This document shows, piece by piece, positions 2 through 59,857 of a stretch of DNA of 64,000 nucleotides (positions are counted from its first letter, which is position 1; each line of letters begins with the position of its first letter). Location: positions 148,826 to 212,825 of the forward strand of contig JAUXUQ010000010.1 in NCBI GenBank assembly GCA_030680605.1, read 5' to 3'. Source of the stretch: Gammaproteobacteria bacterium. GTDB lineage: Bacteria > Pseudomonadota > Gammaproteobacteria > SURF-13. The notes beneath the pieces are model-generated. The model was not told the DNA's origin. It saw only the letters and a list, made by a program, of their open reading frames with translations, and searched no databases. Made by a program: the position numbers and the translations under genes.

Positions 2-1126
2 CGCAGTGAGCGATTACAACAGCTTGCAGAGAAGGAACGTCTGGCAAGCAGGCTGGAGACCCTGCTCAATGCATTGCCCGCCGCTGTCGTGGTGCTTGAT
101 GGATCAGGGTGTATCGCCGAGTATAATCCTGTCGCGTGTGATTTTCTGGGTGAGCCGCTGATGGGGCGGCGCTGGGCCGAGGTGTTTGACCGCGCATTTG
201 TTCCGCGCCTGGTCGAACAGCAGGAGCTCAGTCTGCGTGATGGGCGGCGCGTTCATATGTCGCAAAGCACGCTCGGCGCTGAGCCGGGACGCATTCTTCT
301 GTTCAAGGATGTGACTGAGGCGCGTGTGTTGCAGGAGCGTCTGGGCCACCACCAGCGTCTTTCGGCCATGGGTGAAATGACCGCCAGTCTTGCCCACCAG
401 ATACGTACACCGCTTGCGGTAGCACTGCTCTATAGCGAACAACTCCTCAATCCGGGTCATGCTCCGCAGGAAGTAAGGCGTTACGCTGAAAAAATCCGCT
501 CTCGCCTGCACCATCTGGAGGCGCTGGTTAACGATATGTTGTTGTTTGCACGTGACGGCAGTGGCGGAGAGGTGGAGCCATTGCCGGTTGGATCGTTGCT
601 GCATGAGTTTTCGCAGGCAATGGAAACCTACATATCAGCCGGTCAGTGTTCGCTGACCATCGTGGACGAAACGCACAATACACTGTTGCACGGTTATCAG
701 CAGGCCTTGCTGAGTGTGCTGCAGAATCTTGCCACCAATGCCATGCAGGCGTGTAACGGTAAAGCCCAGCTTGCTCTTGGTGCGCGGTCTGTCGTCGATG
801 GGCAAGGCTACCCGCAGGTATTGATTGCGCTCAGTGACAACGGGCCAGGCGTGCCTGTGGAGATACGCGAGCGCATCTTCGAGCCGTTTTTTACCACGCG
901 CTGCGACGGCACCGGGCTCGGACTTGCCGTAGTGCAATCTATCGTACATGCCCACCACGGCAGTGTGCGGCTTGAGTCGGTGCCCGGAAAAGGCAGTACT
1001 TTTATTCTGAGCCTGCCGGTCTTTTCCCCCGGGGAAGCAATGGCAAGCGGTGTCCGCACGACGACATTGAACAGCGCCACATCCCATCCCGATTTATCCA
1101 ACACTGCAACAAGGAGCACCCCATGA
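2..1126 (+). CDS. fleS: Flagellar sensor histidine kinase (FleS/FlrB-like), 5'-partial: the reading frame is open from the window edge
   Basis: H-box 'MTASLAHQIRTPL' and HATPase_c motifs (DxGxG 'LSDNGPGV', 'GTGLGLAVV'). Sits directly upstream of a sigma-54 response regulator and fliE. The frame has no stop back to position 2. Confidence 0.8.
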   Translation, partial: RSERLQQLAEKERLASRLETLLNALPAAVVVLDGSGCIAEYNPVACDFLGEPLMGRRWAEVFDRAFVPRLVEQQELSLRDGRRVHMSQSTLGAEPGRILLFKDVTEARVLQERLGHHQRLSAMGEMTASLAHQIRTPLAVALLYSEQLLNPGHAPQEVRRYAEKIRSRLHHLEALVNDMLLFARDGSGGEVEPLPVGSLLHEFSQAMETYISAGQCSLTIVDETHNTLLHGYQQALLSVLQNLATNAMQACNGKAQLALGARSVVDGQGYPQVLIALSDNGPGVPVEIRERIFEPFFTTRCDGTGLGLAVVQSIVHAHHGSVRLESVPGKGSTFILSLPVFSPGEAMASGVRTTTLNSATSHPDLSNTATRSTP

Positions 1127-2541
1127 GTTCGTCCACAGTTCTGGTTGTTGAAGATGATGCCTCGCTACGTGAAGCCTTGTGCGACACACTGCAGCAGGCG
1201 GGCTATGGTGTGGCTACTGCCGCAGACGGGCGTGCCGCGTTGGAGCTGTTGGGCGATAGTCAGCGTGGCCCGGCAATCGGCATGGTGGTGAGTGACGTGC
1301 AGATGAACCGTATGGACGGTCATACCCTGCTCAAGCAACTGAGACAGCAGCGGCCTGATTTACCGGTGTTGCTGATGACGGCCTATGGAACCATCAAGCA
1401 TGCAGTGGAAGCCATGCGTGATGGCGCGGTGGATTATCTTGTGAAACCATTCGAGGCCGAAGCCCTGATCCAGCGCGTTACACGCTTTGTGGTGCGGGAC
1501 ACGACTGCTGGTCCGGAGTGGACGACAAGGGATGCGCGCACGCGCGAGATTACGGAGCTGGCCCGGAGAGTGGCGGGCAGTGATGCAACCGTGATGATCG
1601 GTGGAGAATCCGGCACAGGCAAGGAGGTGCTGGCACGCTTTATTCATCAGCACTCGAGGCGCAGCAAGCAGCCGTTTATCGCCATCAATTGTGCGGCAAT
1701 ACCCGACAATATGCTGGAGGCAACGCTGTTCGGGTATGAGAAAGGTGCGTTCACAGGTGCCTACCAGGCCTGCCCCGGCAAGTTTGAGCAGGCCGATGGC
1801 GGTACCTTGTTGCTGGATGAAATATCCGAAATGAATCTTGGCCTGCAGGCAAAGCTGCTACGTGTGCTGCAAGAGCGCGAGGTAGAGCGGTTGGGTGGGC
1901 GCAAGACGATACCACTCAATGTGCGTGTTCTCACAACCTCGAACCGGATCATGCGGGAGGAGGTTTCCGCAGGACGTTTCCGCGAAGACCTGTTTTACCG
2001 GTTGAATGTATTCCCGCTTTACCTGCCGCCCCTGCGCGAACGCATCCAGGATATTCTGCCGCTTGCCACCCATCTTCTTGCGCGCCACGCGCGCGCCGCA
2101 GGCCAGACCAGGCCGGAATTTACACCAGCGGCGGAGCAGAAGCTGCTGGCCCACCAGTGGCCGGGGAATGTGCGGGAACTCGACAATCTGATTCAGCGTG
2201 TCCTGATCCTGCATTGCGGCGACAAGATTGGGGTCGAGGCCTTGTCATTCGATATCGACCAGGGCGGGCCTTCAGGCACTGAGACAGCCGTTACCGTGCA
2301 GGGTGATGTGCTGGGGCACGACCTCAAGGCGCGTGAGCAGGATCTCATTGTCGAGGCGTTGCGTGCTGGCCGGGGCAGCAGGAAATACGCGGCAGAACGT
2401 CTGGGTATCAGCGAACGCACACTGCGCTACAAGCTGGCGCGTCTGCGTGAGGCCGGTGTTTTTCTGCCAGGCTCGGTGCTGGATTCCGCGCAAACGAAAC
2501 CATTCAAGACCCAGGCCCGGTTTGGTGTGGAAAATGCATAA
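1123..2541 (+). CDS. fleR: Sigma-54-dependent flagellar response regulator (FleR/FlrC-like): REC + AAA+ sigma-54 activation + C-terminal Fis-type HTH domains
   Basis: N-terminal receiver 'LVVEDD...D' is followed by Walker A 'GESGTGKE' and the GAFTGA loop 'EKGAFTGA'. The C-terminus carries the HTH 'AAERLGISERTLRYKL'. The ATGA start overlaps the fleS stop. Confidence 0.88.
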   Translation: MSSSTVLVVEDDASLREALCDTLQQAGYGVATAADGRAALELLGDSQRGPAIGMVVSDVQMNRMDGHTLLKQLRQQRPDLPVLLMTAYGTIKHAVEAMRDGAVDYLVKPFEAEALIQRVTRFVVRDTTAGPEWTTRDARTREITELARRVAGSDATVMIGGESGTGKEVLARFIHQHSRRSKQPFIAINCAAIPDNMLEATLFGYEKGAFTGAYQACPGKFEQADGGTLLLDEISEMNLGLQAKLLRVLQEREVERLGGRKTIPLNVRVLTTSNRIMREEVSAGRFREDLFYRLNVFPLYLPPLRERIQDILPLATHLLARHARAAGQTRPEFTPAAEQKLLAHQWPGNVRELDNLIQRVLILHCGDKIGVEALSFDIDQGGPSGTETAVTVQGDVLGHDLKAREQDLIVEALRAGRGSRKYAAERLGISERTLRYKLARLREAGVFLPGSVLDSAQTKPFKTQARFGVENA

Positions 2542-2997: not shown

Positions 2998-4630
2998 GAA
3001 AATGGATTATTCAGCCCCGATGCAAGGTTTCATGCGCTTGCCAATGGTGCGTCAGTTGATGCTCATGCTGGGCCTCGCGGCCAGCATATCGCTGGGTGTC
3101 ATGCTGGTGCAGTGGTCGCAGGAGCCAGGCTATCGTCCGCTTTACAGCAGCCTCGCGGACAAGGATATGGGCCATGTGGTAGACGCCCTGCAAAAGCTCA
3201 ATGTGCCGTACAAGATGGAGGGTGGCAGTGGTGCCATACTGATCCCGGCCGAGCGTGTGTATGATACGCGCCTGAAACTGGCTGCTCAGGGCTTGCCAAA
3301 AGGCACAGCCGGCGGCTTCGAAATCATGGATGAACAGCGGAGTCTGGGTACAAGCCAGTTTATGGAGGCGGCGCGTTATCAGCATGCCCTGGAAGGCGAG
3401 TTGGCGCGTACTATCGGTGCGCTCAGCAATGTGCAAAGTGCCCGTGTTCACCTGGCAATTCCGAAGCAGTCGGTGTTTCTGCGCAGCAAGCAGGATCCCA
3501 CTGCGTCAGTGATGGTAAACCTGTATGCCGGGAGAAACCTGGAAGAGGGCCAGGTGGCAGCCATTGTGCACCTGGTGGCATCCAGCATCCCCAACCTGGC
3601 AACGGGCAATGTGACGGTGATTGACCACAAGGGACAGCTGCTCACGGTGCAAGACGGTTCACGCGACATGCGTCAGAGTTCCAGCCAGCTGGCATACGCG
3701 CAGCGACTGGAGGAATCCTATATCCGTCGTATCGAGGAAATCATTACCCCTATTACGGGGGTCGGCAAGATGCGGGCGCAGGTGGTGGCTGACCTTGATT
3801 TTACACAGACGGAGCAGACCGCAGAAATTTTTGATGCCGAGAAACCAAAACTACGCAGCGAGCAGTCTAATCAGCAACAGACCGTAAACAGCGCGGGCGC
3901 CACCGGCGTACCGGGTGCATTGTCAAATCAGCCGCCGGTAGCTGCCACTGTCCAGGAGCCGACGGACGTTGATACCGTTAATCCGCCGGCTGACGCTACA
4001 TCTGCGCCGCCAGTGCCCATGAACAGCAGCAACAACACCGTGCGCAATTACGAACTCGACAAGACGATCAGTCATACCCGCAACCCTGCCGGCACCATAC
4101 GCCGTCTTTCGGTGGCGGTGGTGGTGGATGACCGTCAGGTTCTGGATGAAGACGAGGAACTGGTGCGGACGCCTCTGCAGCCTGAAGAGCTTGAGCGCAT
4201 CACCACCCTGGTGAAGGAGGCGGTGGGTTTCAGCGAAAAGCGCGGTGACACGGTAAATGTCATCAATGCCTCGTTTACTGCCCCTGAGGTGATAGAGCCG
4301 CTGCCGGAACCCTCGTTCTTCAGCAAGCCATGGGTGGCAACGGCGGGCAAGAACATCATGGCCGGTGCGTTTATACTCCTCATTGTCTTTGGCGTGCTGC
4401 GTCCGGTGCTGAGCGGACTGGCCACTCGGGCGCTGCCAGGACCGGCCCTGGACCAGGAGATGCTGATGGATGACCGGGTGAGTATCGGTGCAGGAGGGCG
4501 TCAAGGTAACCGACTGCCAGCTCCTGCCAATGATTACGAGACCAATCTGAACGCAACCAAGGCGCTTGCCGCGCAGGATCCGAAGCGCGTGGCGCAGGTT
4601 GTCAAGAACTGGGTGGCAAGCGATGGCTGA
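2998..4630 (+). CDS. fliF: Flagellar M-ring protein FliF
   Basis: About 545 aa with an N-terminal TM helix, the conserved 'LYSSLADKDMGHVVDALQKLNVPYK' region and a C-terminal TM helix. Start chosen at ATG 2998 (an alternative is 2954). Confidence 0.85.
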
Positions 4631-6261: not shown

Positions 6262-7657
6262 CGCTTCTCCCGGACTCGATCGTGCACCACTATGGAGTAT
6301 GCGGCTTGCGCAGCTGCGTGAGCGAATCAAGGTCCCGCCTGCACTGGTGGTAGAGGGAAAGCTTACGCGCATGGTTGGACTGACGCTGGAGGCCGTAGGC
6401 TGCCGGGCTGCGATAGGCGCACGGTGCCTGATTATCGGTCCGGATGGAGGCAAGGTTGAAAGTGAGGTAGTGGGATTCTCCGGCGATAAACTGTTTCTGA
6501 TGCCAACGGGAGATACGCGCGGGATCAGTGCCAATGCCCGTGTAATTCCGGAGGAAGGTGGCTATGAAGCCATGGTGGGAAAAACGCTGCTGGGGCGGGT
6601 GCTGGATGGTGCAGGATGCCCGCTTGACGGGCTTGGTGCGCTGCAGCTGGAAAAGCGCATGCCACTTACAGGCAGAACCATCAACCCGCTGGCGCGGCGC
6701 CCTATTCGCGAACCGCTCGATGTCGGTGTGCGCGCCATCAACGCACTTGCCAGTGTTGGCCGTGGCCAGCGCATGGGTTTGTTTGCCGGCAGTGGCGTGG
6801 GTAAAAGTGTGCTGCTCGGCATGATGACGCGCTTTACCAGCGCCGATGTGATCGTAGTGGGGCTGATTGGCGAGCGTGGACGTGAAGTAAAGGAGTTCAT
6901 TGAAAATATCCTCGGTCCTGAGGGGATGTCCCGCGCGGTGGTGGTGGCGGTACCGGCGGACAATCCGCCCCTGCTGCGCATGCAGGGCGCGGCACTGGCT
7001 ACCACCATCGCCGAGTACTTTCGCGACCAGGGCCAGCAGGTGCTGTTGCTGATGGATTCGCTAACGCGCTATGCCCAGGCGCAACGTGAAATTGGCCTCG
7101 CAATCGGGGAGCCGCCAGCGACCAAGGGTTACCCGCCATCGGTTTTTGCCAAGCTGGCACAACTGGTCGAGCGGGCTGGCAATGCGGATATCGCTGGAGG
7201 GTCCATCACGGCTTTTTACACTGTGCTTACGGAAGGTGACGATCAGAGCGACCCAATCGCTGATGCCGCGCGTGCCATCCTGGATGGCCACATCGTCCTG
7301 TCGCGCCGGCTGGCCGAGGGTGGACATTATCCCGCGATCGATACCGAAGCCTCCATCAGCCGTGCCATGGCGGATATCACGACGCCAGCGCACCAGCAGG
7401 AGGCGCGGCGTTTCAAGCAGCTGTATTCCACCTATCAACAAGGGCGCGATCTTATCAGTGTCGGTGCGTACACGCCGGGCAGTGATCGCCAGCTGGATGA
7501 GGCCATAGCGATCAACCCTCGGCTGATCGACTTCCTGCAGCAGGACATGCACCAGCAGGTGACACTCAACGACAGCTTGCACGACCTGGCACAATTGATC
7601 AAGACGGCTGACGTGGAACCGGTATTGAGCCAGCAGGATGTCAAGGATCTGGTTTAA
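6242..7657 (+). CDS. fliI: Flagellum-specific ATP synthase FliI
   Basis: Walker A '[11 protein letters not shown]' and Walker B '[12 protein letters not shown]', with F1-ATPase beta-like organisation. Confidence 0.92.
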
Positions 7658-7687: not shown

Positions 7688-8128
7688 ATGACAAAATCAC
7701 AGCGGCTTTCACCTATTGCCCAAATCGCTGAAGCAAGAGAGCTCAGCGCGTCGCACATACTGGCTCAGGCACAACGCATGTTGAGTGAGGGTGAGGAGCG
7801 ATTGTCCGAGTTGCTCTCCTACCGCGATGAATATCAGCGGCGTTTGCATGAGGCGGGCGCGGCAGGCCTTGCCTCCGGGCATATGCAGGAGTACCTGTTA
7901 TTCATTGCCAAGCTCGACCAGGCAGTCGGGAGTCAGCGTGAACGGCTGCAGGAGGCGGCGCTCAACTACGAGCAGCAAAAAGTACACTGGCTTGCATTGC
8001 ATGGCAAGACGCTTGCCTTGGACAAGGCAGTGGAGCGGTGCCGGGGTGAAGAGTCGCGCATGGATGATCGGCGCGAGCAGCGTGAAGCGGACGAACGTGC
8101 ACAATACGCCAAGCCGAAATCCAGCTGA
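7688..8128 (+). CDS. fliJ: Flagellar export chaperone FliJ
   Basis: 146-aa coiled-coil protein downstream of fliI, with a FliJ-like N-terminus 'LSPIAQIAEARELSASHILAQAQ'. Confidence 0.75.
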   Translation: MTKSQRLSPIAQIAEARELSASHILAQAQRMLSEGEERLSELLSYRDEYQRRLHEAGAAGLASGHMQEYLLFIAKLDQAVGSQRERLQEAALNYEQQKVHWLALHGKTLALDKAVERCRGEESRMDDRREQREADERAQYAKPKSS

Positions 8129-8240
8129 ACCAAGCCTCTCTACATTTGACCTAAGCGCTGTTTAATTCGATGCTTGGCAACAGGCTAAGCAGCGTCCAAC
8201 CATATAAATCCACACTATTAGTATTTAATTTCTCCCGCGC

Positions 8241-8263
8241 CATATATGATGGCATCATATATG
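8241..8263. promoter_or_regulatory. Perfect 11-1-11 palindrome CATATATGATG-g-CATCATATATG in an AT-rich intergenic island (candidate dimeric-regulator operator)
   Basis: Read directly: positions 8241-8251 are the reverse complement of 8253-8263. It is the only strongly AT-rich stretch in the window. Confidence 0.5.
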
Positions 8264-8313
8264 CAAGCTATAAATGTGCGAAATCTTATGCAAGGTTACG
8301 CTCCTAGTTTTTT

Positions 8314-8349
8314 GGAGCTATGGGTGTTTGACATCCATAGCTCTTTTTC
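8314..8349. terminator. Rho-independent, potentially bidirectional terminator between convergent fliJ and yggT
   Basis: Stem GGAGCTATGG (8314-8323) pairs with CCATAGCTC (8335-8343) around an 11-nt loop. It is followed by TTTTTCTT and preceded by a T-run that gives a U-tract on the opposite strand. Confidence 0.6.
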
Positions 8350-8673
8350 TTGGGCGCCTGTCTTAATGGCAATGGCGTGCCTGTTGAGAAATATTCTTTA
8401 AAAGCCAGCAGCTTCAGTATCAGGAACGACAGCGGCAAGCAGTAAGAAGGGTGCTAGGTGCTCGCGGTAGATGGCGGCGCAGATACACATCGGCTGTTGT
8501 GCCGTGCCTTACGGTAGGTCGGATATTACTGCCTGCTTGAGGTTAGGGGTGGACGCGCAGCTGACTATATTGGAGGGCGAGTATGGCAGTGTACGAGTTG
8601 GCGCTCGAGGCAGTGCGTGCGCCAGCTGTATCGCCAGGGCCAGAGGTGGTCTAGCGGTAAGGTTTGCCCGTCC

Positions 8674-9243
8674 TTATCCCAGCGCCAAGGCGCGCAGGGG
8701 TGCGACAATCAGCATTGAGGCCAACTGTAATGCGATCAATACTACAATAGGAGACAGGTCCAACCCACCCATTGGAGGCACCATGCGACGTGCCGGTGCC
8801 AGCAGTGGTTCATTCAGGCTGTGTAACAGGGCGGTCAGCGGGTTGTGTTCGCCCGGGCGGATCCAGCTCAGGATGACCTGTATCAGAATCGAAAACAGAA
8901 ATACATGAAACAGAAGTCCGAGTAGTTCGGCCACCGAAACCAGCAATAAACTCCCGATGTTCCAGCTGTGGCCGGCGAGCAGGCCAAGCAGCACAAGTTC
9001 CGTCATCTTCAATGCCAGCAACAGCAGTACCGAGGCGAGGTCGATATTGAGCAGCCCCGGTATGACGCGCCGCAGCGGTACGACGACAGGATTGGTGGCC
9101 TTGACCAGAAACTGTGAAAGCGGGTTGTAAAAGTCGGCGCGTACCAGCTGCAGTAACAGGCGCAACAGCACGATGAGGATGTATAGATGAAACAGGGTCT
9201 GTATCAGGAACACCCCGGCATTGCTGAAATATCCGCCACTCAT
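8674..9243 (-). CDS. yggT: YggT family inner-membrane protein
   Basis: 189 aa with multiple TM helices. The proC-yggT adjacency matches the conserved yggS-proC-yggT cluster. Confidence 0.75.
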   Translation of the reverse strand: MSGGYFSNAGVFLIQTLFHLYILIVLLRLLLQLVRADFYNPLSQFLVKATNPVVVPLRRVIPGLLNIDLASVLLLLALKMTELVLLGLLAGHSWNIGSLLLVSVAELLGLLFHVFLFSILIQVILSWIRPGEHNPLTALLHSLNEPLLAPARRMVPPMGGLDLSPIVVLIALQLASMLIVAPLRALALG

Positions 9244-21712: not shown

Positions 21713-23027
21713 ATTCCCTCGCCGCAGCTACCAGTGCCAGGCGCGCGATCACGCCGTAGGCATAGAAACGGTTGGGGCTGGCGTCCGGTTCCTGCGTCTG
21801 GTCGGGTGAGGTACAGGACTCGGCAAAGGCGAGTGGCTCAAAGTGCATGCCGGGGGCGTTCAGATTTTCATCCGTCCCACGGTTTTTGTGCACACGGTAA
21901 AAGCCGCCCACGACATAATGGTTGATCATGTAGACTACCGGCTCGGCGACGGCCTCGTTACCGGCTTCACCCAGTGTCTCGAAGGTGTATACGCCCTCCT
22001 GCATGATGACCTTGCTCACGGCCTGGCCACCCTTGACCGCTGCCATGCGGGTGCGCTCCTTGCGGTTCAGTTCCCGCATCTCGCTACCGCTGTACACACT
22101 CATTACGCCCATGCCGTAGGTGCCGGCATCGGCCTTTACCACCACGAAGGGCTGCTTTTCGATGCCATATTCATCGTATTTACGCCGGATCGCACCAAGC
22201 AGGGCGTCGACATTGGTGGCGAGGCAGTCTTCGCCCTCGCGCTGCATGAAGTTGATTTCACCACAGCGGCGGAATAACGGATCAATCAGCCATGGATCGA
22301 TATCGATGAGACTGGAAAACTCTGCGACCACCTGTTTGTAGTGCTCGAAGTGGTCGGATTTGAGTCGGTTGGCCCAGCCGAGGGAGAGTGGCGGAAGCAC
22401 GGGTTGCGCCAGGCCTTCCAGCAGGGACGGTCGTCCGGCGGACAGATCATTATTGAGCAGCACCATGCAGGGGGTGAAGCCGTCTACGCTGATGCGTTCG
22501 TCATTGCGGCGTATGGGCTCCAGTTGCAGGCTGCGCTTCGAGGGTAGTATCACATCCAGCGGTTGTTCTAGGCCGGGCAGCAGCGAACCGATACGAACCG
22601 CAAATCCCGCTTTCCTGACAATGTCGCGCAAGGTGGCCAGGCTTTCGAGATAAAACAGGTTTCTGGTGTGATTCTCAGGGATAATCAGTATGTTGGCTGC
22701 GCGTGGGCAGGTGCGTTCGATGGCCGTTTGTACCGCGTGGATACACAGCGGCAGGAAGGCTGGGTTGAGGTTGTTGAAGCCGGCCGGAAACAGATTGGTG
22801 TCGACCGGTGCCAGCTTGAAGCCGCTGTTACGCAGGTCAACCGAGGCATAAAAGGGGGCGGGCGTTGTCAGCCATTGGTGACGTAGCCAGTGTTCAATCT
22901 GCACCTGCTGGGCCAGCAGGTGGCTCTCTATCAGTTGCAGCGGGCCATTGAGCGCCGTGGTGAGGTGGGGAACGGCATGCAGCGCTTCACTACGCATCAG
23001 ATAATCTCTAATGGGGTATTTCGCCAT
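21691..23027 (-). CDS. gshA: Glutamate--cysteine ligase, probably of the rare Acidithiobacillus ferrooxidans-type family
   Basis: About 445 aa from 'MAKYPIRDY'. It is not the E. coli-type GshA, and its position upstream of gshB suggests the function. The family assignment comes from memory of TIGR02049, not from a search. Confidence 0.5.
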
Positions 23028-26757: not shown

Positions 26758-27237
26758 ATGCTCTCCGGGTACATGAAGAATACGGCACACTGTCGGTTGG
26801 CTGGTGTGTCAGGCATGGGTGATGCAGAGTTCGCGCAGCGGATCAGGCTGCTGCTGGAGGTTCGTACCTATATCCGTCCTGCAATGCCCGGGGCAGCAGG
26901 TTGGGGGGCATTTCACAGGCATAAACGGGGTGTGCGTGAGCCTGCCTCGCTGAGGCGCTATTTTATCCAGGTGGTGGATGATCACTGCCAGATAGGTGAG
27001 TGTCTGGGTAATCGCATGCGTATCGAGTGTGCCAATTCCCTGAAACCAGTTTTATCCACCCTTGCCGGAATCGGCGCTATTTTTTGTCAGAATGTACTTG
27101 TCTATTTCAGTCAGCAGCAGCGCGCAGATATCCTCGGCAGGGTGCCAAATCCGGCAGAGAGCATGCCATGGCCTCATCCGGATATGAGGCGTGTGTCTTG
27201 CGAAGCCAGTTTGGCGTATTACCGTCCCGTCTCATGA
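26758..27237 (+). pseudogene. Possible remnant of the cheR-like methyltransferase gene pilK. The ORF has no methyltransferase domain.
   Basis: This is the position pilK holds in Pseudomonas. Only a 159-codon ORF is present, with faint CheR-N-like 'EFAQRIRLLLEVRTYI' and no SAM-binding motifs. Confidence 0.25.
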
Positions 27238-30200
27238 AGGTGGCGAGGTTGGCAGATTACAGTGCGCTCAACTGGGTCAAGCCAGAGATCGACGAGACCT
27301 TGAGGCAGGCACGCCATACCCTGGAGGCCTATGTAGCCGATCCGAAGGATGTGATGCAGATGCGCTTTTGTATTGCGCATCTGCATCAGGTGCACGGCAC
27401 ACTGAAGATGATTGAGTTCTATGGTGCGGTGCTGTTGGCGGAAGAGATGGAGCTTCTCGCGCGCTGGCTGGTGGAAGCCGAAACCAGGCAGACAGATGAT
27501 GTCAGAGAAGTGGCTTATGAAATATTGATGCGAGCCATCTTGCATCTGCCTAATTATCTGGAGCGCCTGCAGAAGGGTCACGTCGATAGCCCGATTGTCA
27601 TATTGCCTCTGCTTAATGAGCTGCGCGCTGTGCGGGATCTTCCGTTGTTGTCTGAAAGCATGCTGTTTATGCCGGATCCCTCAGTGGTGCCAGCGCCTGC
27701 AGCCTCTTCACCCGAACGTGCTGGTGAACCTACGGCAAGGAGGGATGCGCGCGAGCTTGCATTCAAGCTGCGGCCCATCTACCAGCATACATTACTGAAC
27801 TGGTATCGGGGCCGCTATGCGGTGGAAAGCCTGCATCAGCTTGCCGTTATCGTCGATGAGTTGCAGCAGGCTGCAAGCACAGACAGGGTGGCCCAGGTCT
27901 GGTGGGTGGCCGGTGCTTTCATTGAAACGCTTGTCGATGCCGACAATGATGCAGGGGGGGCGGCCAAACAGTTGCTGGGCCAGATTGATCGCGAAATAAA
28001 GCGACTGATAGATGCTGGTGAGCAGGAGTTTTCCGCAAAACCTCCCACGGAGCTGCTCAAGAGTCTACTTTATTATATCGGGAGAACACAATCTGCGCGC
28101 GCGCGTGTCAATGAGGTTCGACAGGCCTTTCGCCTTGATGTGCTATTGCCGTGTGCTCAGACAATTGATGCTGAGCGCGCGTATCTCACGGGCCCGAATC
28201 GGGAACTGATGAGATCTGTATTCACGGTATTGCATGAAGATATCTCCAAGGTAAAGGAAGGAGTCGACATATTTGTACGCAATGAAACGCAGGAATTGTC
28301 CGCGCTTTTACCGCTGGAGGAAATCCTGCGCAGGGTGGCTGATACACTCGGTATGTTGAATCTCGGTGCGCCACGCCAGTTGATACTGGAGCAGATGAAT
28401 GTCGTTGCCGCCATTGCGCGCGGTGTTGTGCCGCCCGGTGAGGTTGCGTTACTGGAGATGGCGGGTGCCTTACTGCAGGCTGAGTCTGCGCTGACGGAGT
28501 CGGATATCGTCAAGGCTATGGCAGATGAGGCGTCGGTGGCAGATGGTATCGCAGAGGATGCCGGTTGCTTGCCGAACGCGGAATACCGCGAGATGCAGGA
28601 TGCTGTGATACGTGAGGCGCAGGTGGACATCTCCCGTATTAAAGACAGTCTGGCGGCATTTTTTGGCATGCCCCGGCAGCGAGATCTGCTTGCAGACATA
28701 CCCAGGCTGCTGCTGCAGGTCGGCGGTGGTCTGTCCATGCTGTCACTCACGCGCGCCGTTGAAGTGCTGCAGGTGTGCCACGATTTTATCGCACTGGAAC
28801 TGATCGGATGTGAGGCTGTGCCCAAGCCGCAGCAGCTGGATGCGCTGACCGAGGCCATCAGCGCCTTGGAGTATTATCTTGAGGCGCTGGGTGAAGGCCG
28901 CGCTGAACGAGAAATCATTATCGAGCAGGCATTGGGTTGTGCGCGGCGGCTTGTCCAGCCAGAGATGGCCGGCGAGGATGCGGCGGTGTCTGGGGGTCGG
29001 CAGTTGCAGCAGGGCGTGACGGAGTCTGTATTCCTTTCCGCGCCAGCCAGGCCGTTGCGCATGGAAGAAATCGATGACGAGATCATGGCGGTGTTTCTGG
29101 AAGAGGCCGATGAGGAGGTTGCCTCCATCAGGAGCCAGGTGCAGATATGGAAGGACGATCATGAAGGCCAGGATGCGCTGCATACATTGCGGCGCTCGTT
29201 TCACACCTTGAAGGGCAGTGGGCGGCTGGTGGGCGCATCAGAGTTGGGTGCGTTCGCCTGGTCGTTCGAGAATCTGCTCAACCGCGTCATAGACAACACT
29301 GTAGCTGCCACGCCGGGGCTGATCACCCTTGTAGAGGAAGCAGCAAGCCAGCTACCCGGGCTGGTGGAGGAGTTCAAGGGAAATGCAGCATCACTGGGAG
29401 ATATTCCGGGCTTGGTGGAGCGCGCACGTGTACTAAGCCAGCCGAATCAGGCGGCCACAATGAACACAGTCATGCCTGCCGCACAGCAAGTTGCCGCAGC
29501 GGGATCGGTTGTCACTGTGTCGCGGCCGGCAACGTACATAGAACCCGTGATGGATCCCGTATTGCTTGAGATATACAGCAGGGAAACCACTGCACATCTT
29601 GCGGCTCTGCGGGCATTTATCTCGCGCTGCGAAACCGATGCCGCATGCAAGGTGGACGAAGACCTGGTGCGCAGGTTTCATACACTGCATGGTAGCGCGG
29701 CTATGGCCCGCGTGTCTGACATCGCTGCTCTCTGCGATGTAATGGAAGAATATGTCAAGGTACTGCGTGATACGGACACTGCGTTCAGTGGCGAGGCTCT
29801 GGACGCGCTGAACAGGGTGTGCGATGCAATTCAGGCCAGAGTTTATGCATTACAGTCCCCCGGTAATATGCAGCCCGATAGTAATGCCCTGCGGATGCAC
29901 ATTACCGATCTTTTCGTCAGGGCGCGGCAGCAACATGGCCTGCAGGCTGGTTTTGCTGCCCCTGTCGTACCGGTCCCGGAACACGTAGAGCGCGATAGCG
30001 ATATGGCGGCAGTGTTCATGGATGAGGCAAAGGAGGCCCTGGATGCCAGTGATGCTGTTCTGCAGCAATGGATAAAGCAGCCGGTTGACCGCAAACTTCT
30101 GGAGGAGCTGCGGCGCGAGCTCCATACCCTCAAGGGGGGCGCGCGTATGGCGGATGTTACCGAGATGAGTGATCTGAGTCACAGTCTCGAGTCTCTGCTT

Positions 30201-32309
30201 ACCGCTATGCTAGAAAGGCTGATTCTGCCCTCAGATGCCATCAGTGCACTGATTCAGCAGGCCCATGATCGGTTGCTCGCAATGCTGGACCGTCTGCGTA
30301 TGGGCCAGCCACCGGCCGCTGCCGGTGACCTTATTGCGCAGATCAATGAGACGTTACATCCCGCTCCCGCCATGCCCCCTGTCACCGCGCAGGGGGCACA
30401 TAATTCAGAACCGGATGCCGGGTTTCCTGTGGCTATGGAAGAACAGCCTGTGGAGATGGAGGATGGCCGTGCTGGTACATACGCTCAGCGTGAACAGATA
30501 CGTGTCCGCTCAGATATGCTGGATAATCTGGTTGGCCACGCTGCTGAGCTGAGTATCTTGCGCTCGCGCATTGAACAGAAAATAACCGCATTCAAATTCA
30601 GCTTGGTGGAGATGGAGCATACTGGAACGCGTCTGCGCGATCAGTTGCGCCGGCTTGAAATTGAAACAGAAACGCAAATCCTGTTCCGCTATGCCGAGAG
30701 TGGGCGGCCTCATGAGCAGGAGTTTGACCCGCTGGAGCTTGACCGTTTTACCCAGATGCAACAACTTTCACGCAGCTTGCTGGAGAGCGTGAGCGACATC
30801 GCAAGCATTCAGGGGTTGCTGCAGGGCCTGGTGAGTGAATCAGAGATGCTCCTGATGCAGCAGGCGCGAGTGAATACTGACCTGCAGGAGAGTCTGTTGC
30901 GTACGCGCATGGTGCAATTCTCCGCGGTGCTGCCGCGTCTACGTCGTATCCTGCGTCAGACAGGTGAAGAACTGGGAAGACAGGTCGAGCTGCACGTCTC
31001 CGGCGCGGAAAATGAGTTGGATCGTACTTTGTTGGACCGTATGGTGCCTGGCCTGGAGCACATGCTGCGTAATGCCGTGGGCCACGGTATTGAGGGCAGG
31101 GAAGATCGGCTGGCAATGGGTAAGCCGGAAACGGGTACCATCAGCCTGAGACTTGTGCGCGAAGGCACCCATGTCGCTGTCAGTATCAGCGATGACGGGC
31201 GCGGTCTTGATCTGGAGGGCGTGCGCACCAAGGCTATCGAGCGCGGCTTGCTGAGCAAGCACGCCCAGGTAACTGACAGCGAACTGATGCAGTTCATTCT
31301 TGAACCGGGATTCAGTACGGCGCCGGAGATCACACAGATCTCCGGACGCGGTGTGGGTATGGATGTGGTGAGCAGCGCTATCAAGCAGCTTGGGGGGACT
31401 CTTTCCATCAGGTCAGAGAGAGGTGCAGGATCCACATTCACCATGCGCCTTCCCCTTGCATTGTCAGTGAGCCATGTATTGATGGTGCAAGTGGGTGACG
31501 ACGTTTACGCTGTTTCACTCGCCACTGTCGAGCGTGTTATGCGTATCTCACATGAGGAGCTGAAACAGGTATACGCGAGCGAGGAGCGTACATATCGTGT
31601 TTCAGGGCAGAAGTACCCGTTTTTACATCTGGGAACGATGCTGCACGCAAGTCACCCGCAATTGCCGGGACCGGGGGGAAAGGCGACAGCCTTGTTGCTG
31701 CGTACGGGTGAGAAGCGCATCGTAATTCATGTCGATGGTCTGATCGGGAGCCGTGAAATCGTAGTGAAGTCAGTGGGCGTGCAGATCAGCACCATAAGGG
31801 GTATTACCGGAGCCACTATCATGGGCGATGGGCGTGTGGTCTTGGTGCTCGATATTGCTATCATGCTGGATGGCAGTGCCATGTCCTCCACAGTGCCATC
31901 GGCTGCGGGGGAGGCAGGGCATGAGGGTATTACCGTCATGATAGTGGATGATTCCATTACCGTGCGCAAAGTAACCACCCGTCTGCTCGAGCGCCACAAT
32001 ATTTCCGTACTTGCAGCCAAGGACGGTATGGATGCGATTACATTGTTGCAACAGCATGTGCCGGATGTAATGTTGCTGGATATCGAAATGCCGCGTATGG
32101 ACGGCTACGAGCTCGCCGCACATATGCGTGGCGATGAGCGTCTGCGCGATGTGCCGATCATGATGATTACCTCGCGTACCGGTGACAAACACCGCGATCG
32201 TGCCTTTGCACTGGGCGTGAACCGCTATCTGGGAAAGCCCTTCCAGGAGATAGACCTGTTGAACAATATTCATGCCTTGCTGGCCGAACATGTGGAAGCT
32301 CGGCACTGA
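27235..32309 (+). CDS. chpA: Multi-Hpt hybrid histidine kinase ChpA (CheA-like) with a C-terminal receiver domain
   Basis: N-terminus 'MKVARLADYSALNWVKPEIDETL'. At least four Hpt-like motifs (HQVHGTLKM, FHTLKGSGRL, FHTLHGSAAM, LHTLKGGARM). CheA HATPase ('GHGIE', 'DDGRGLD', 'GRGVGMDVV') followed by CheW and REC domains ('VMIVDDSITVRK...DIEMPRMDG...GKPF'). Confidence 0.9.
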
Positions 32310-56346: not shown

Positions 56347-58517
56347 GACATCTGCTCTGCCAGTGCGTGGATGGCAACGTAATCAAGCTTGCCGGTGCCG
56401 AGCAGGGGCAGTTCGGTGACATGCAGAATTCTGCGCGGCACAGCAATGTCGGCGTGGCCGAGTGCGCGCCCTGCGTGCTGGAGGGCCTCTCTGGAGAGCT
56501 GTGCGTCGGTGCTGACCAGTACGATGGCCTCGCCTCGCTGTGGATCAATGAGCGCCGTGGCCGCATGTTGTGCGTCAGGCGAGGCATGTCTGGCGATCTG
56601 CTCCACCACTTCCAGAGACACCATCTCGCCGGCCACCTTGGCGAAACGTTTGACGCGGCCAACGATACGCACAAAGCCATTGTTATCAATCTCGACGATA
56701 TCACCGGTGCAATACCAGCCCTGTCCTGCCTCTGACGCGGGCGGCTCAAGCACCCCGGGACGCTCATGCCGGTAATAACCGGACATGATATTCGGCCCGC
56801 GCACATGCAACAGGCCGCCGCGCTCGATGCCGGGTACGGGCAGCAGGCGCGTCTCAATGCCGGGGAGAAACTGGCCGACTGTTCCGGCAGAATAGGCCAG
56901 AGGGGTGTTGACGGCCAGTACCGGAGCGGTTTCGGTAGCGCCATAGCCCTCCAGTATGCGTACGCCGAATTTTTCAGACCACACGCTGCGTACCGCATCT
57001 GATAATTTCTCGGCGCCGGCGATCACGTAGCGCAGGCGGTGGAAGTCGTAGGGGTGGGCGAACTTGGCATAGTTACCGAGAAAGGTGCTGGTACCGTACA
57101 GCACCGTGCATGCCTGGTCATATACCAGCTCCGGGATGATGCGGTAATGCAGTGGCGACGGGTACAGAAACAGCCGGGTGCCGGTCAGCAGGGGCAGCAG
57201 TGCGCCTGCCGTCAGTCCAAATGAATGGAACACAGGCATGGCATTGAGTATCTTGTCCTGCGGGGAGAAATCTATCACCGAGCGTATCTGGTTTATGTTG
57301 GCGAGCAGCGCGCGATGCGATAACACCACCCCTTTGGGTTTTCCTTCCGAGCCCGACGTAAACAAGACCACGGCGGTAGCCTCCGGATCGCAGGCTTTGA
57401 TGGCGCGGCGAGGGAAGGGTAATGCCAGCAGCACCAGCCACAGCTTGTCGAGGAGGGTAAGGCGTGCGCGCATGTCCTCCAGATAAAGCAGGCGGACATC
57501 GCTCAGTGCCGCAAGCTGCTGTGTGAGATCGGCCTTGGCAACAAACTCGCGCGAGCTAATGATGGTTTTTATCCGGGCTGCATGACAGGCGCTTTGCATG
57601 GCTTCCAAGCCGGCCGTGTAGTTGAGCATGGCCGGCACACGGCCCCAGGCGTTCAGGCCCAGAAGCAGACAGAGCGTGCTGGTGATGTTGGGTAGCAGGA
57701 TGCCTACCTGCTCATGCGGTTGACTGAACTTGGCGCTCAAGCGCCCCAAGGCCAGCGTCATTTTCAGGATCTGCCCGTAGGAGTACGCGGCTTGCTTGAT
57801 GTCGCCCACGACGACGTGGTTACGCCCATAGCGCCGTATCGTAGTGAGTAGCTGGCCGTGGAGAGTTTGTTTCGGCTGGCTATTAAATACCATGGCCTGC
57901 ATGATTTTGCGCAAGGCCTCGCCTGCCAGTTGGCGATATTGCTTGGGGTTGTCCGTGGCGGGCAGGGATAGACGGATGGGGGGCTGGATCGCAATGCGTA
58001 CCGTGGGAAACAGCGTGTGCGGGTAGCTGTCGCGGGTGCGGCTGAACCAGGAGCCGATCAGGCCCTCAATCCCGATCGGGATGATCGTGGCATTTGTTTT
58101 GGCGGCGGCAAAGGCCGGGCCATCATAGATTTTCATCAGGCCGCCGGTGGTGGTGATGCGGCCTTCCGGGAAAATCATCACCGGGCGGCCTTGCTCCAGC
58201 AGCCGGATAACCTTCTTGATGGCCAGGGGATTTGCCGGATCAATTGTCAAATGGTCTATCAATGCCAGCACAACACGGAATGAGCGTACACGTGCAATAT
58301 CGGTGTTGACGACGAACACCGGATCGACAGGCAGAAACAGGCCAAACAGCAACCCATCCAGAAACGACTGATGGTTGGCGATGATGAGCAGCCTTTTGTC
58401 CGCAGGCAATACCAGTTCTCCGGTAACTTGCACCCGGTATACGAGGCGGAACAAAAGTCTCAGAAATGTTTTTAATAGCAGTCTGAACATGTTCTCTCCA
58501 TCAGTAACATGCGACAC
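56343..58517 (-). CDS. aas: Bifunctional 2-acylglycerophosphoethanolamine acyltransferase / acyl-ACP synthetase Aas
   Basis: N-terminal PlsC acyltransferase 'ANHQSFLDG' (HX4D) and a C-terminal AMP-binding domain 'LFTSGSEGKPKGV'. Confidence 0.88.
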   Translation of the reverse strand: MSHVTDGENMFRLLLKTFLRLLFRLVYRVQVTGELVLPADKRLLIIANHQSFLDGLLFGLFLPVDPVFVVNTDIARVRSFRVVLALIDHLTIDPANPLAIKKVIRLLEQGRPVMIFPEGRITTTGGLMKIYDGPAFAAAKTNATIIPIGIEGLIGSWFSRTRDSYPHTLFPTVRIAIQPPIRLSLPATDNPKQYRQLAGEALRKIMQAMVFNSQPKQTLHGQLLTTIRRYGRNHVVVGDIKQAAYSYGQILKMTLALGRLSAKFSQPHEQVGILLPNITSTLCLLLGLNAWGRVPAMLNYTAGLEAMQSACHAARIKTIISSREFVAKADLTQQLAALSDVRLLYLEDMRARLTLLDKLWLVLLALPFPRRAIKACDPEATAVVLFTSGSEGKPKGVVLSHRALLANINQIRSVIDFSPQDKILNAMPVFHSFGLTAGALLPLLTGTRLFLYPSPLHYRIIPELVYDQACTVLYGTSTFLGNYAKFAHPYDFHRLRYVIAGAEKLSDAVRSVWSEKFGVRILEGYGATETAPVLAVNTPLAYSAGTVGQFLPGIETRLLPVPGIERGGLLHVRGPNIMSGYYRHERPGVLEPPASEAGQGWYCTGDIVEIDNNGFVRIVGRVKRFAKVAGEMVSLEVVEQIARHASPDAQHAATALIDPQRGEAIVLVSTDAQLSREALQHAGRALGHADIAVPRRILHVTELPLLGTGKLDYVAIHALAEQMS

Positions 58518-58536
58518 AGATTCGGTCGTGGTAATG

Positions 58537-58848
58537 CTAGCTTTTGTTTTTCACGTAGTCTCGCACGTCTTTCATGATCTGCAATAGCAAGGGTTTGTTG
58601 ATCCACAGATACACTTCCTTGCCGACTTTCTCGCTCAGTAATACCTGAGCCTCGCGCAACACCCGCAAGTGGTGATCCACGGCCGAGCGTGAGAGGCTGG
58701 AAACAGCCACGATCTGGCTTACATTCAGCCGCTCACCTGGCTCGAAGGTGAGCAGGATGCGCTGGCGGTGTTCATCGCCCAGGGCGGTAAAGGCCTTGGA
58801 GACCGATCGCCATTGTGTTGGAAGGGCGCGAAGATAATGCTTATTCAT
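58537..58848 (-). CDS. ArsR/SmtB-family transcriptional regulator
   Basis: 103-aa wHTH protein with 'LNVSQIVAVSSLSRSAVDHHLRVLREAQVL'. Confidence 0.8.
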   Translation of the reverse strand: MNKHYLRALPTQWRSVSKAFTALGDEHRQRILLTFEPGERLNVSQIVAVSSLSRSAVDHHLRVLREAQVLLSEKVGKEVYLWINKPLLLQIMKDVRDYVKNKS

Positions 58849-58862
58849 AACTACATGCTTAT

Positions 58863-58878
58863 TTATATAGTTATATAA
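58863..58878. promoter_or_regulatory. 7-2-7 inverted repeat TTATATA-gt-TATATAA immediately upstream of the ArsR-family gene (candidate autoregulatory operator / -10 region)
   Basis: Read directly, 15 nt upstream of the regulator start codon, in an AT-rich 60-bp gap. Confidence 0.4.
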
Positions 58879-58909
58879 GTCAAGCGCCTGTTGAGAGGTT
58901 TTTTACGGA

Positions 58910-59857
58910 TCAGGCGGAGCGCTGGTTTTTTGCCTGTAAATCAGCATGGTACGATGAGCGTACCATGGGGCCGCTGGCTACATTGCTGAAGCCCATGCGC
59001 CTGCCGGTTTCAGCCAGCTGGTCAAATTCCTGCGGGGTGACAAAGCGTTCCACTGCGAGGTGATGGCGGCTGGGTTGCAGGTACTGGCCAAGGGTCAGCA
59101 TGTCGACGTCGTGCGCGCGCAAATCCTGCATCACCTGCTCGATCTCGGCCAGCTCTTCACCCAGACCCAGCATCAAGCCAGATTTGGTGGGCACCCCGGG
59201 GTGGGCGGCCTTGAAGCGCTGGAGCAGGGTGAGTGAATACTGGTAGTCAGCGCCGGGACGGGCCTGCTTGTACAAGCGCGGCACGGTTTCCAGATTGTGG
59301 TTGAACACATCGGGCGGTGCCTGCTGCATGATGTCGAGGGCGATATCCATGCGGCCGCGAAAGTCCGGCGTCAGGACTTCAATGCGTGTCTGGGGTGACT
59401 GCTGGCGCACGGCCTGTATGCAATTGACGAAGTGCTCCGCACCGCCATCACGCAGGTCATCACGATCTACCGAGGTGATCACGACATATTTCAGACCCAT
59501 GGACTGGATGACGTGGGCCAGATTGGCGGGTTCCTGGGTATCCAGCGCTTCGGGTTTGCCGTGCGCGACATCGCAGAACGGGCAGCGTCGAGTGCAGATC
59601 GCCCCCATGATCATGAAGGTGGCCGTACCGTGGCCGAAGCATTCGCCGAGATTGGGGCAGGCGGCCTCCTCACACACGGTGTGCAGGCGGTGTTCGCGCA
59701 AAATGCCCTTGAGGCGTGCGACCTCCGGGCTGGCGGTGGATTTGGCGCGTATCCAGGCCGGCTTGCGCCCCAGCGTGGTGCTGGGAACGACCTTGATCGG
59801 GATGCGCGCCATCTTGGAGGCGCCTTTCAGTTCACGCAGAGTTTCGTTGTTGGCCAT
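58910..59857 (-). CDS. lipA: Lipoyl synthase
   Basis: Radical-SAM 'CTRRCPFC' and auxiliary cluster '[12 protein letters not shown]'. Confidence 0.93.

Follow-up and report, generated by a model that had tools for sequence, protein, structure and literature searches.

Small regulatory RNAs (sRNAs) driven by sigma-54 include Qrr in Vibrio as well as CrcZ and NrsZ in Pseudomonas. Sigma-54-linked sRNAs also occur in flagellar systems, for instance CJnc230/FlmE in Campylobacter (PMC11187230) and FlaX in Vibrio (bioRxiv 10.64898/2026.08.28.747715), both of which are processed from the 3' ends of flagellar mRNAs. In Pseudomonas putida, the genes located 3' of fliJ encode the HptB-HsbR-HsbA partner-switching module (hsbAR-hptB-fliK... 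operon), and the hsbA promoter is sigma-70-like with an extended -10 (bioRxiv 10.1101/2021.08.29.457346). This report concerns the 545-bp gap that separates the convergent genes fliJ and yggT (positions 8129-8673) in a 64-kb stretch of gammaproteobacterial DNA, hereafter the window. As in the fliJ-hsbA-hsbR-hptB arrangement of P. putida, relatives of the window hold STAS, receiver-PP2C-kinase and Hpt-bearing proteins between fliJ and yggT.

The gap is probably the decayed locus of a sigma-54-dependent hybrid histidine kinase, of which the promoter, a leader with its terminator and stubs of the receiver and Hpt domains remain. Judged by sequence comparison, it is a scar left by the vertical decay of a syntenic kinase locus and not an acquired island. 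What is new is a predicted, uncatalogued leader/sRNA-like RNA element on a sigma-54 promoter that occurs both next to its gene and, elsewhere in the same rare, uncultured gammaproteobacterial clade, without it.

The relatives that carry the locus represent a rare lineage and come from metagenomes only. Those found through FliJ are L005 (identical to the window), L001 (a metagenome-assembled genome, MAG, with 93% FliJ identity), L002 (81%), L003 (78%) and L004 (72%); the genome collection gave a single FliJ relative. Those found through YggT are L009 (94% YggT identity), L010 (84%, resembling L003), L012 and L013 (both 80%) and L014 and L015 (both 77%), L014 and L004 being parts of the same MAG. 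Kinase orthologs in L016 and L017 are more distant (50-55% identity).

Remnants of a hybrid histidine kinase gene

The intact form of the locus is found in L014, where yggT is met head-on by an uninterrupted gene for an 837-aa hybrid histidine kinase with the domain order receiver-receiver-HisKA-HATPase-receiver-Hpt, preceded on its 5' side by genes for a receiver-PP2C-kinase protein, a STAS protein and a methyl-accepting chemotaxis protein (MCP). An intact kinase gene is also convergent with yggT in L016 and L017, in both cases with yggT-proC-yggS, and the recurrence of this arrangement around such distant orthologs indicates that the adjacency is old. The contigs of L004 and L014 may be adjacent in their common MAG, which would give the order fliJ-MCP-STAS-PP2C-kinase-yggT.

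When the L014 kinase was used as a tblastn query, the gap of L001 returned the N-terminal 128 residues (65.6% identity, E 2e-51) and residues 756-809, which belong to Hpt (E 4e-13), and the gap of the window returned residues 7-41 (E 2e-5). The C-terminal match in L001 spans 7072-7227, adjoining and overlapping the Hpt remnant of that locus, and the same segment matches the intact Hpt protein of L012 (E 5e-18). Profile searches agree: the Hpt remnant of L001 matches Pfam Hpt (E 2e-4) and its pseudo-protein matches Pfam Response_reg (E 9e-14) despite three in-frame TAG codons. These stops fall within a span of about 20 codons in the receiver pseudogene (L001 6729-6860); all are TAG, one being common to the window and two private. 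In the window, the segments downstream of the terminator described below are as follows.

8352-8457, + strand: residue of the former 5' untranslated region (UTR), without detectable homology to relatives past CTTGGGCGC
8458-8562, + strand: N-terminal receiver-domain remnant of the hybrid histidine kinase (about residues 7-41; tblastn E 2e-5), with an in-frame TAG at 8515-8517
8559-8673, + strand: C-terminal Hpt-domain remnant of the hybrid kinase, frameshifted, 82% identical to L001 7201-7307

By these matches, 8458-8673 is identified as pseudogene debris of a hybrid histidine kinase (receiver...Hpt). Its lesions comprise the TAG at 8515-8517, the loss of the start codon and an internal deletion of about 750 codons (about 630 codons have been lost in L001). 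Since that TAG is common to the window and L001, the kinase gene died before the two lineages split. The UTR residue (8352-8457) is absent from L001, and its alignment to the UTR of L014 was no better than that of shuffled sequences. A remnant of a STAS (hsbA-like) gene was sought between the promoter and the receiver stub, with no significant blastn or tblastn signal.

Other relatives have lost the kinase gene to different extents: L012 and L013 retain just an Hpt gene or open reading frame (ORF) at the locus, and L003 and L010 have a scar of 189-190 nt in which the tail of Hpt can still be recognised. The junction next to yggT seems to be a hot spot of rearrangement.

In L009, the relative with 94% YggT identity, the Hpt remnant consists of the final ~45 nt only, and a gene fragment for AbiEii, a type IV toxin (1318-1763; PF08843, E 1.6e-11), abuts yggT. 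L012 carries several direct and inverted copies of GTGCGCAAGCGCACCCTACG at 7100-7250 (- strand reading), 5' of its stand-alone Hpt gene; these look like a repetitive extragenic palindromic (REP) type element.

A predicted sigma-54-type promoter and the leader unit

Upstream of the coding debris lies a compact unit that runs from a predicted promoter to an intrinsic terminator and includes the following features.

8250-8265, + strand: predicted sigma-54 (RpoN) type promoter TGGCATcatatATGCA (TGGCAT-N5-ATGCA), the sole match to the pattern in the window
8276-8351, + strand: predicted short transcript or leader RNA of about 76 nt with two hairpins (fold -28.5 kcal/mol, z = -5.35)
8278-8301, + strand: 5' hairpin (GCG.AAUCUU-AUGC-AAGGUU.CGC), with 7 of 8 pairs present in all three lineages (window, L001, L014) and one U.G changed to C-G
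8292-8305, + strand: 14-mer AAGGTTACGCTCCT, identical in the window, L001 and L014
8314-8351, + strand only: intrinsic terminator with a 14-bp stem (8314-8344) followed by UUUUUCUU, indicated by folding and by comparative changes in the stem

The promoter element has GG at 8251-8252 (-25/-24) and GC at 8263-8264 (-13/-12) with a GG-GC spacing of 10 bp; the single departure noted from the TGGCAC-N5-TTGCW pattern is an A for T at -15, and the start of transcription is predicted near 8276. The element recurs before the kinase gene or its remains in relatives: TGGCATcatatTTGCT stands at the homologous place in L001, TGGCATcctgcTTGCA in the 280-nt gap 5' of the intact kinase in L014, and TGGCACttaaaTTGCA 37 nt before the ATG of the orthologous kinase in L017. 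The strict pattern TGGCAY-N5-TTGCW occurs five times in about 130 kb of fetched loci, and three of these matches are the kinase gene or pseudogene sites of L001, L014 and L017. A sigma-54 activator, FleR-like, is encoded about 6 kb upstream in the window (1123-2538; PF00158 Sigma54_activat, E 6e-67). On this basis 8250-8265 is the predicted sigma-54 promoter of the former kinase gene.

Sigma-54-type promoters also lie directly 3' of fliJ in L002 (1922-1937, before a STAS gene) and in L004 (6574-6589, before a membrane-protein ORF), and the presence of such elements before fliJ-adjacent signalling genes in relatives places those genes on sigma-54 promoters in this clade. The window promoter does not correspond to the one 5' of the STAS gene of L002, as L014 shows the element to be the kinase's own promoter. 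In L017 two consensus sigma-54 promoters stand back to back, 22 nt apart (2979-2994, - strand, and 3017-3032, + strand), one facing the hybrid kinase and the other a divergent ABC-substrate-binding/sCache-kinase operon.

The predicted RNA 8276-8351 consists, in order, of the 5' hairpin, a single-stranded ...ACGCUCCUAG UUUUUU stretch, the terminator hairpin and a U-tail, and the same two-hairpin fold is obtained for L001 and L014. When the three sequences were aligned with the structure as a guide, 15 of 16 pairs were present in every lineage; within the terminator stem five of eight pairs have changed on both sides, one of eight on one side, and none is broken. The hairpin at 8314-8344 followed by TTTTTCTT, which the original prediction had described as a hairpin with a T-run (8314-8349), is confirmed (-21.2 kcal/mol, z = -5.45). 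Its suggested use on either strand is not: an A-run follows on the - strand, and the terminator scan lists the + site alone. A covariance model built from the window and L001 recovered the L014 unit at full length (36.1 bits, with a rough E-value of 1.3e-5 in 168 kb) and nothing else in those 168 kb.

The 14-mer is absent from the 14 other loci and from the rest of the window. It holds a CUCCU run that resembles an anti-Shine-Dalgarno sequence and is a candidate seed or protein site; no complement of it was found in the 64-kb window. An Rfam scan of the gap and of the L014 leader assigned no family and gave sub-threshold terminator look-alikes only, and two exact-pattern scans of JGI metagenomes for the leader yielded no further copies. 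The unit contains no conserved ORF. A leader peptide was considered and rejected, as the reading frame does not carry over from the window to L001 and L014 has ATG-TAA; an ANTAR-type dual hexaloop target was likewise ruled out, neither the sizes of the loops nor the spacing of A and G fitting that motif.

The L014 unit is found downstream of the promoter and some 100 nt ahead of the kinase ATG; as a 5' leader of that gene it is not a free-standing sRNA gene there. It has been lost along with the kinase in L003, L010 and L012 and kept beside the dead kinase in the window and L001. Between these last two, identity is 0.88 in the promoter-to-terminator block, 0.81-0.82 in the pseudogene debris, 0.80 in the gap 5' of the promoter and 0.77 at four-fold degenerate sites (n = 979); the block has small indels only, and large independent indels occur on both of its flanks. 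This pattern is suggestive, not compelling, of constraint on the block.

The original prediction of a repressor-controlled small RNA of about 70 nt thus survives in part: a compact promoter-to-terminator unit of about 76 nt is present in three lineages, but the type of promoter, the operator and the free-standing nature of the gene, which is a leader in L014, do not stand.

According to the proposed mechanism, in the intact state (as in L014) a sigma-54 activator would drive transcription that is mostly halted at the leader terminator (attenuation), and read-through of the terminator would express the kinase. On this reading the window retains the promoter (8250-8265), the ~76-nt leader (8276-8351) with its 5' hairpin, invariant AAGGUUACGCUCCU and terminator, the N-terminal receiver stub with its old nonsense codon and the C-terminal Hpt stub. 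If still activated, the promoter would start RNA polymerase/sigma-54 near 8276 and give an RNA of about 70-76 nt ending at the terminator, which would additionally end read-through from the fli operon and shield yggT from antisense transcription. The palindrome that overlaps the promoter would have arisen in this lineage only, by a change just 5' of the TGGCA of the -24 element together with a T-to-A change at -15.

The palindrome, the flanking features and competing explanations

Two features that had first drawn attention to the gap overlap or adjoin the promoter.

8241-8263, no strand: perfect 11-1-11 palindrome CATATATGATG-g-CATCATATATG, the right half of which is formed by the -24/-12 element
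8269-8275, + strand: TATAAAT, between the -12 element and the predicted start, unsupported as a promoter

The perfect 23-bp palindrome is present as described. Under a first-order Markov model, 0.17 perfect palindromes whose arms reach 11 nt or more and whose spacer does not exceed 4 nt are expected per 64 kb, i.e., a palindrome of this size is unusual, not extreme. Its recurrence, which would have pointed to a regulon, was not observed: the palindrome is single-copy in the 64-kb window, with no second copy even when three mismatches are allowed. The next best perfect palindrome of the window is CACCTGCTGG-g-CCAGCAGGTG (10-1-10, 22902-22922). The 23-bp palindrome is centred on the TG-G-CA of the -24 element, a sequence that is inherently self-complementary. 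To the left of this centre the 11 nt read CATATATGATG in the window, GGATTATTTTG in L001 and CAGCCATCTTG in L014, and in each of the two relatives they complement their own right arm at 6 of 11 positions. An indel of about 48 nt between the window and L001 ends exactly at the -24 element, and the T-to-A change at -15 in the window creates CATATATG, itself self-complementary. The perfect palindrome is best described as a derived, single-lineage extension of the TGGCA core and not as an operator, though the new sequence 5' of the -24 element may affect promoter activity.

The remaining features of the gap and its borders are the following.

7688-8128, + strand: fliJ, last gene of the fleS/fleR-fliEFGHIJ cluster (ORF; homologs with PF02050 FliJ)
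8172-8190, strand not assigned: imperfect inverted repeat GCTTGGC-AACAG-GCTAAGC, one mismatch from a perfect 7-5-7
8674-9243, - strand: yggT, first gene of the convergent yggS-proC-yggT unit (homologs with PF02325)

The convergent ends of fliJ and yggT are as first reported. On the 5' side of fliJ are ORFs for fliE-I, a histidine kinase and a sigma-54 activator response regulator, a combination that makes this a Pseudomonas/Vibrio-style fleSR-fliEFGHIJ cluster. Public gene calls (P0001, P0004) place the FliJ start 30 codons later (116 aa vs 146 aa), and for this reason an exact-sequence look-up of the 146-aa FliJ gave no match. The inverted repeat 8172-8190 has its perfect 7-5-7 form in L001, folds at -12.6 kcal/mol (z = -2.5) and may either form a hairpin at the 3' end of the fli operon mRNA or serve as an activator site. 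No tRNA or tmRNA was found, and the gap showed no self-similarity to the rest of the window and no repeats in the window or the loci. Elsewhere in the window, a 1760-aa ORF occupies 27027-32309 (+ strand).

The description of the gap as an AT-rich island of 540 bp applies to 8129-8420 (GC 0.418) but not to 8421-8673, whose GC of 0.601 equals the background; the AT-rich part is regulatory DNA and the GC-normal part coding debris. The lowest-GC 150-nt stretch of the window is 8202-8351 (0.36 vs a mean of 0.60). The gap is therefore the strongest low-GC segment of the window but not, as had been claimed, the only one, as 58344-58961 ranks second (GC 0.40-0.46 in windows of 150-300 nt).

Against this background the alternatives can be weighed. 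The layout originally proposed, a sigma-70 promoter (TATAAAT) with a repressor on the palindrome driving an sRNA of about 70 nt, takes its appeal from a palindrome that is perfect and unique in the window and from a TATAAAT with a terminator 40-75 nt downstream. The heptamer is indeed there, but it has no -35 partner, a promoter scan of the gap found no sigma-70-like site on the + strand, and at the same place L001 reads CTAT--ATGT and L014 TTAT---TTC. A check of conservation in relatives showed the promoter-to-terminator unit to be kept in all three lineages, unlike the left palindrome arm and TATAAAT; the -24/-12 element inside the right arm is what has been retained. With the left arm missing from L001 and L014 the operator/repressor reading has no comparative support, such a palindrome is expected 0.17 times per window by chance, and this explanation is very improbable. 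A horizontally acquired remnant, e.g., the scar of a mobile element, would fit the lowest GC of the window and a yggT-proximal junction that is variable in relatives, with an AbiEii toxin gene fragment in L009. A remnant it is, but hardly a horizontal one: searches returned no plasmid or phage similarity, the segment has no repeat in the rest of the window or in the loci, each half is orthologous to part of a kinase locus that is vertically syntenic with yggT even in distant relatives, and the matching regulatory gaps of relatives are also AT-richer than their own genomes. Horizontal origin is accordingly given next to no weight. It is somewhat less far-fetched, though still improbable, that the promoter is dead and the hairpin has been kept purely as the terminator of fliEFGHIJ against collision with yggT-proC-yggS. 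The hairpin is the sole intrinsic terminator between the convergent genes and acts on the + strand only, and the T-to-A change at -15 and the new upstream sequence could weaken activation; however, both pseudogene lineages still have the -24 GG and the -12 GC at the proper spacing, this view would not account for the invariant 14-mer or the 5' hairpin, and L003 and L010 do without such a terminator.

The strongest of the alternatives, which we nevertheless consider unlikely, is that the ~76-nt unit is a trans-acting, sigma-54-dependent sRNA with an Hfq-type layout, kept by selection after the death of the kinase and using the invariant AAGGUUACGCUCCU (anti-Shine-Dalgarno CUCCU) to pair with target mRNAs. 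No other part of the gap is as well preserved (identity 0.88, with small indels inside and large independent ones on the flanks), and the unit has been retained even though the kinase died before the window and L001 separated; the 14-mer is unchanged across the three lineages, the terminator stem shows compensatory changes, and the fold is strong (z = -5.35). Its own predicted promoter and terminator bound a non-coding segment (8276-8351) without a conserved ORF, in which seed, U-rich stretch, terminator hairpin and U-tail follow the Hfq-type order, and sigma-54-linked flagellar sRNAs exist elsewhere, i.e., CJnc230/FlmE (PMC11187230) and FlaX (bioRxiv 10.64898/2026.08.28.747715). On the other side, the unit is a leader some 100 nt 5' of an intact ORF in L014, L003, L010 and L012 lost it together with a more complete loss of the kinase, the 64-kb window has no target-like complement of the 14-mer, the excess of conservation over neutral is small, and the two metagenome scans gave no further copies. 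It is equally doubtful, on present evidence, that the RNA is a leader becoming, or having already become, an independent regulatory sRNA that outlived its kinase in two lineages; such an orphaned RNA may regulate other mRNAs, possibly of the flagellar or partner-switching network, in response to a sigma-54 activator. In the window the short RNA may be either the relic of an attenuator or an sRNA still at work.

The preferred reading, a decayed sigma-54-dependent kinase locus, has difficulties of its own. The promoter, the start site and termination are all predictions. A match to the sigma-54 pattern is expected about once per window by chance, so that the case for the promoter rests on position and conservation; a looser scan of the window stayed at chance level. 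A search for an activator site with GCTTGGC-N5-GCCAAGC, the perfect form of the inverted repeat 8172-8190, found no other good copy in the window (7 matches vs 9 expected). No convincing antiterminator was found, the sole candidate being a 5-bp GCUCC/GGAGC pairing, and the attenuator mechanism in L014 is therefore a presumed one. Moreover, the identity of the block (0.88) is just modestly above neutral, and retention of the unit in the window and L001 could reflect incomplete decay; the leader is known from three lineages only, all of them metagenome-derived.

Significance and comparison with described systems

The odd AT-rich island is accounted for by gene decay, and its operator-like palindrome is lineage-specific. 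The combination of sigma-54 promoter, 5' hairpin, invariant 14-mer and terminator constitutes a candidate RNA element that is not in Rfam. One relative has it as a leader before an intact kinase, and in two lineages it accompanies a dead one, a contrast suited to studying the conversion of a leader into an sRNA after gene loss. If the RNA were a functional sRNA, the locus would be a snapshot from nature of an sRNA being born out of a 5' leader that has lost its gene, and this uncultured gammaproteobacterial clade would have a new RNA family.

The window element matches the doublets and spacing of the sigma-54 promoters of polar-flagellum and two-component regulons (-24 GG/-12 GC, TGGCAC-N5-TTGCW), is kept before the orthologous gene in relatives and has a FleR-like activator encoded 6 kb upstream; it differs from them in having A instead of T at -15, in that no activator or IHF site has been identified and in that the gene it served is now a pseudogene. 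As in leader-terminator (attenuator) systems, a strong intrinsic terminator follows the predicted start of L014 by about 45-80 nt and precedes the kinase ATG by about 100 nt, but the L014 leader has no leader peptide (ATG-TAA), no Rfam riboswitch or leader match and no ANTAR-type hexaloop pair. The window terminator itself, a 14-bp stem followed by a U-tract on the + strand, meets the sequence definition of an intrinsic terminator.

The resemblance to CJnc230 and FlaX is one of theme: a predicted short RNA tied to sigma-54, placed at the end of a flagellar cluster, with a terminator hairpin and, as in sigma-54-linked flagellar sRNAs, a conserved stretch of anti-Shine-Dalgarno type. Unlike those RNAs, the window unit has its own predicted -24/-12 promoter, was ancestrally a 5' leader and shows no sequence similarity to them. 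With respect to P. putida, the regulons contrast: the fliJ-adjacent signalling genes of this clade are on sigma-54-type promoters, whereas hsbA has a sigma-70-like one. In addition, Hpt is part of an 837-aa hybrid kinase in this clade, and the window has lost the STAS and PP2C genes and retains its kinase gene as debris.

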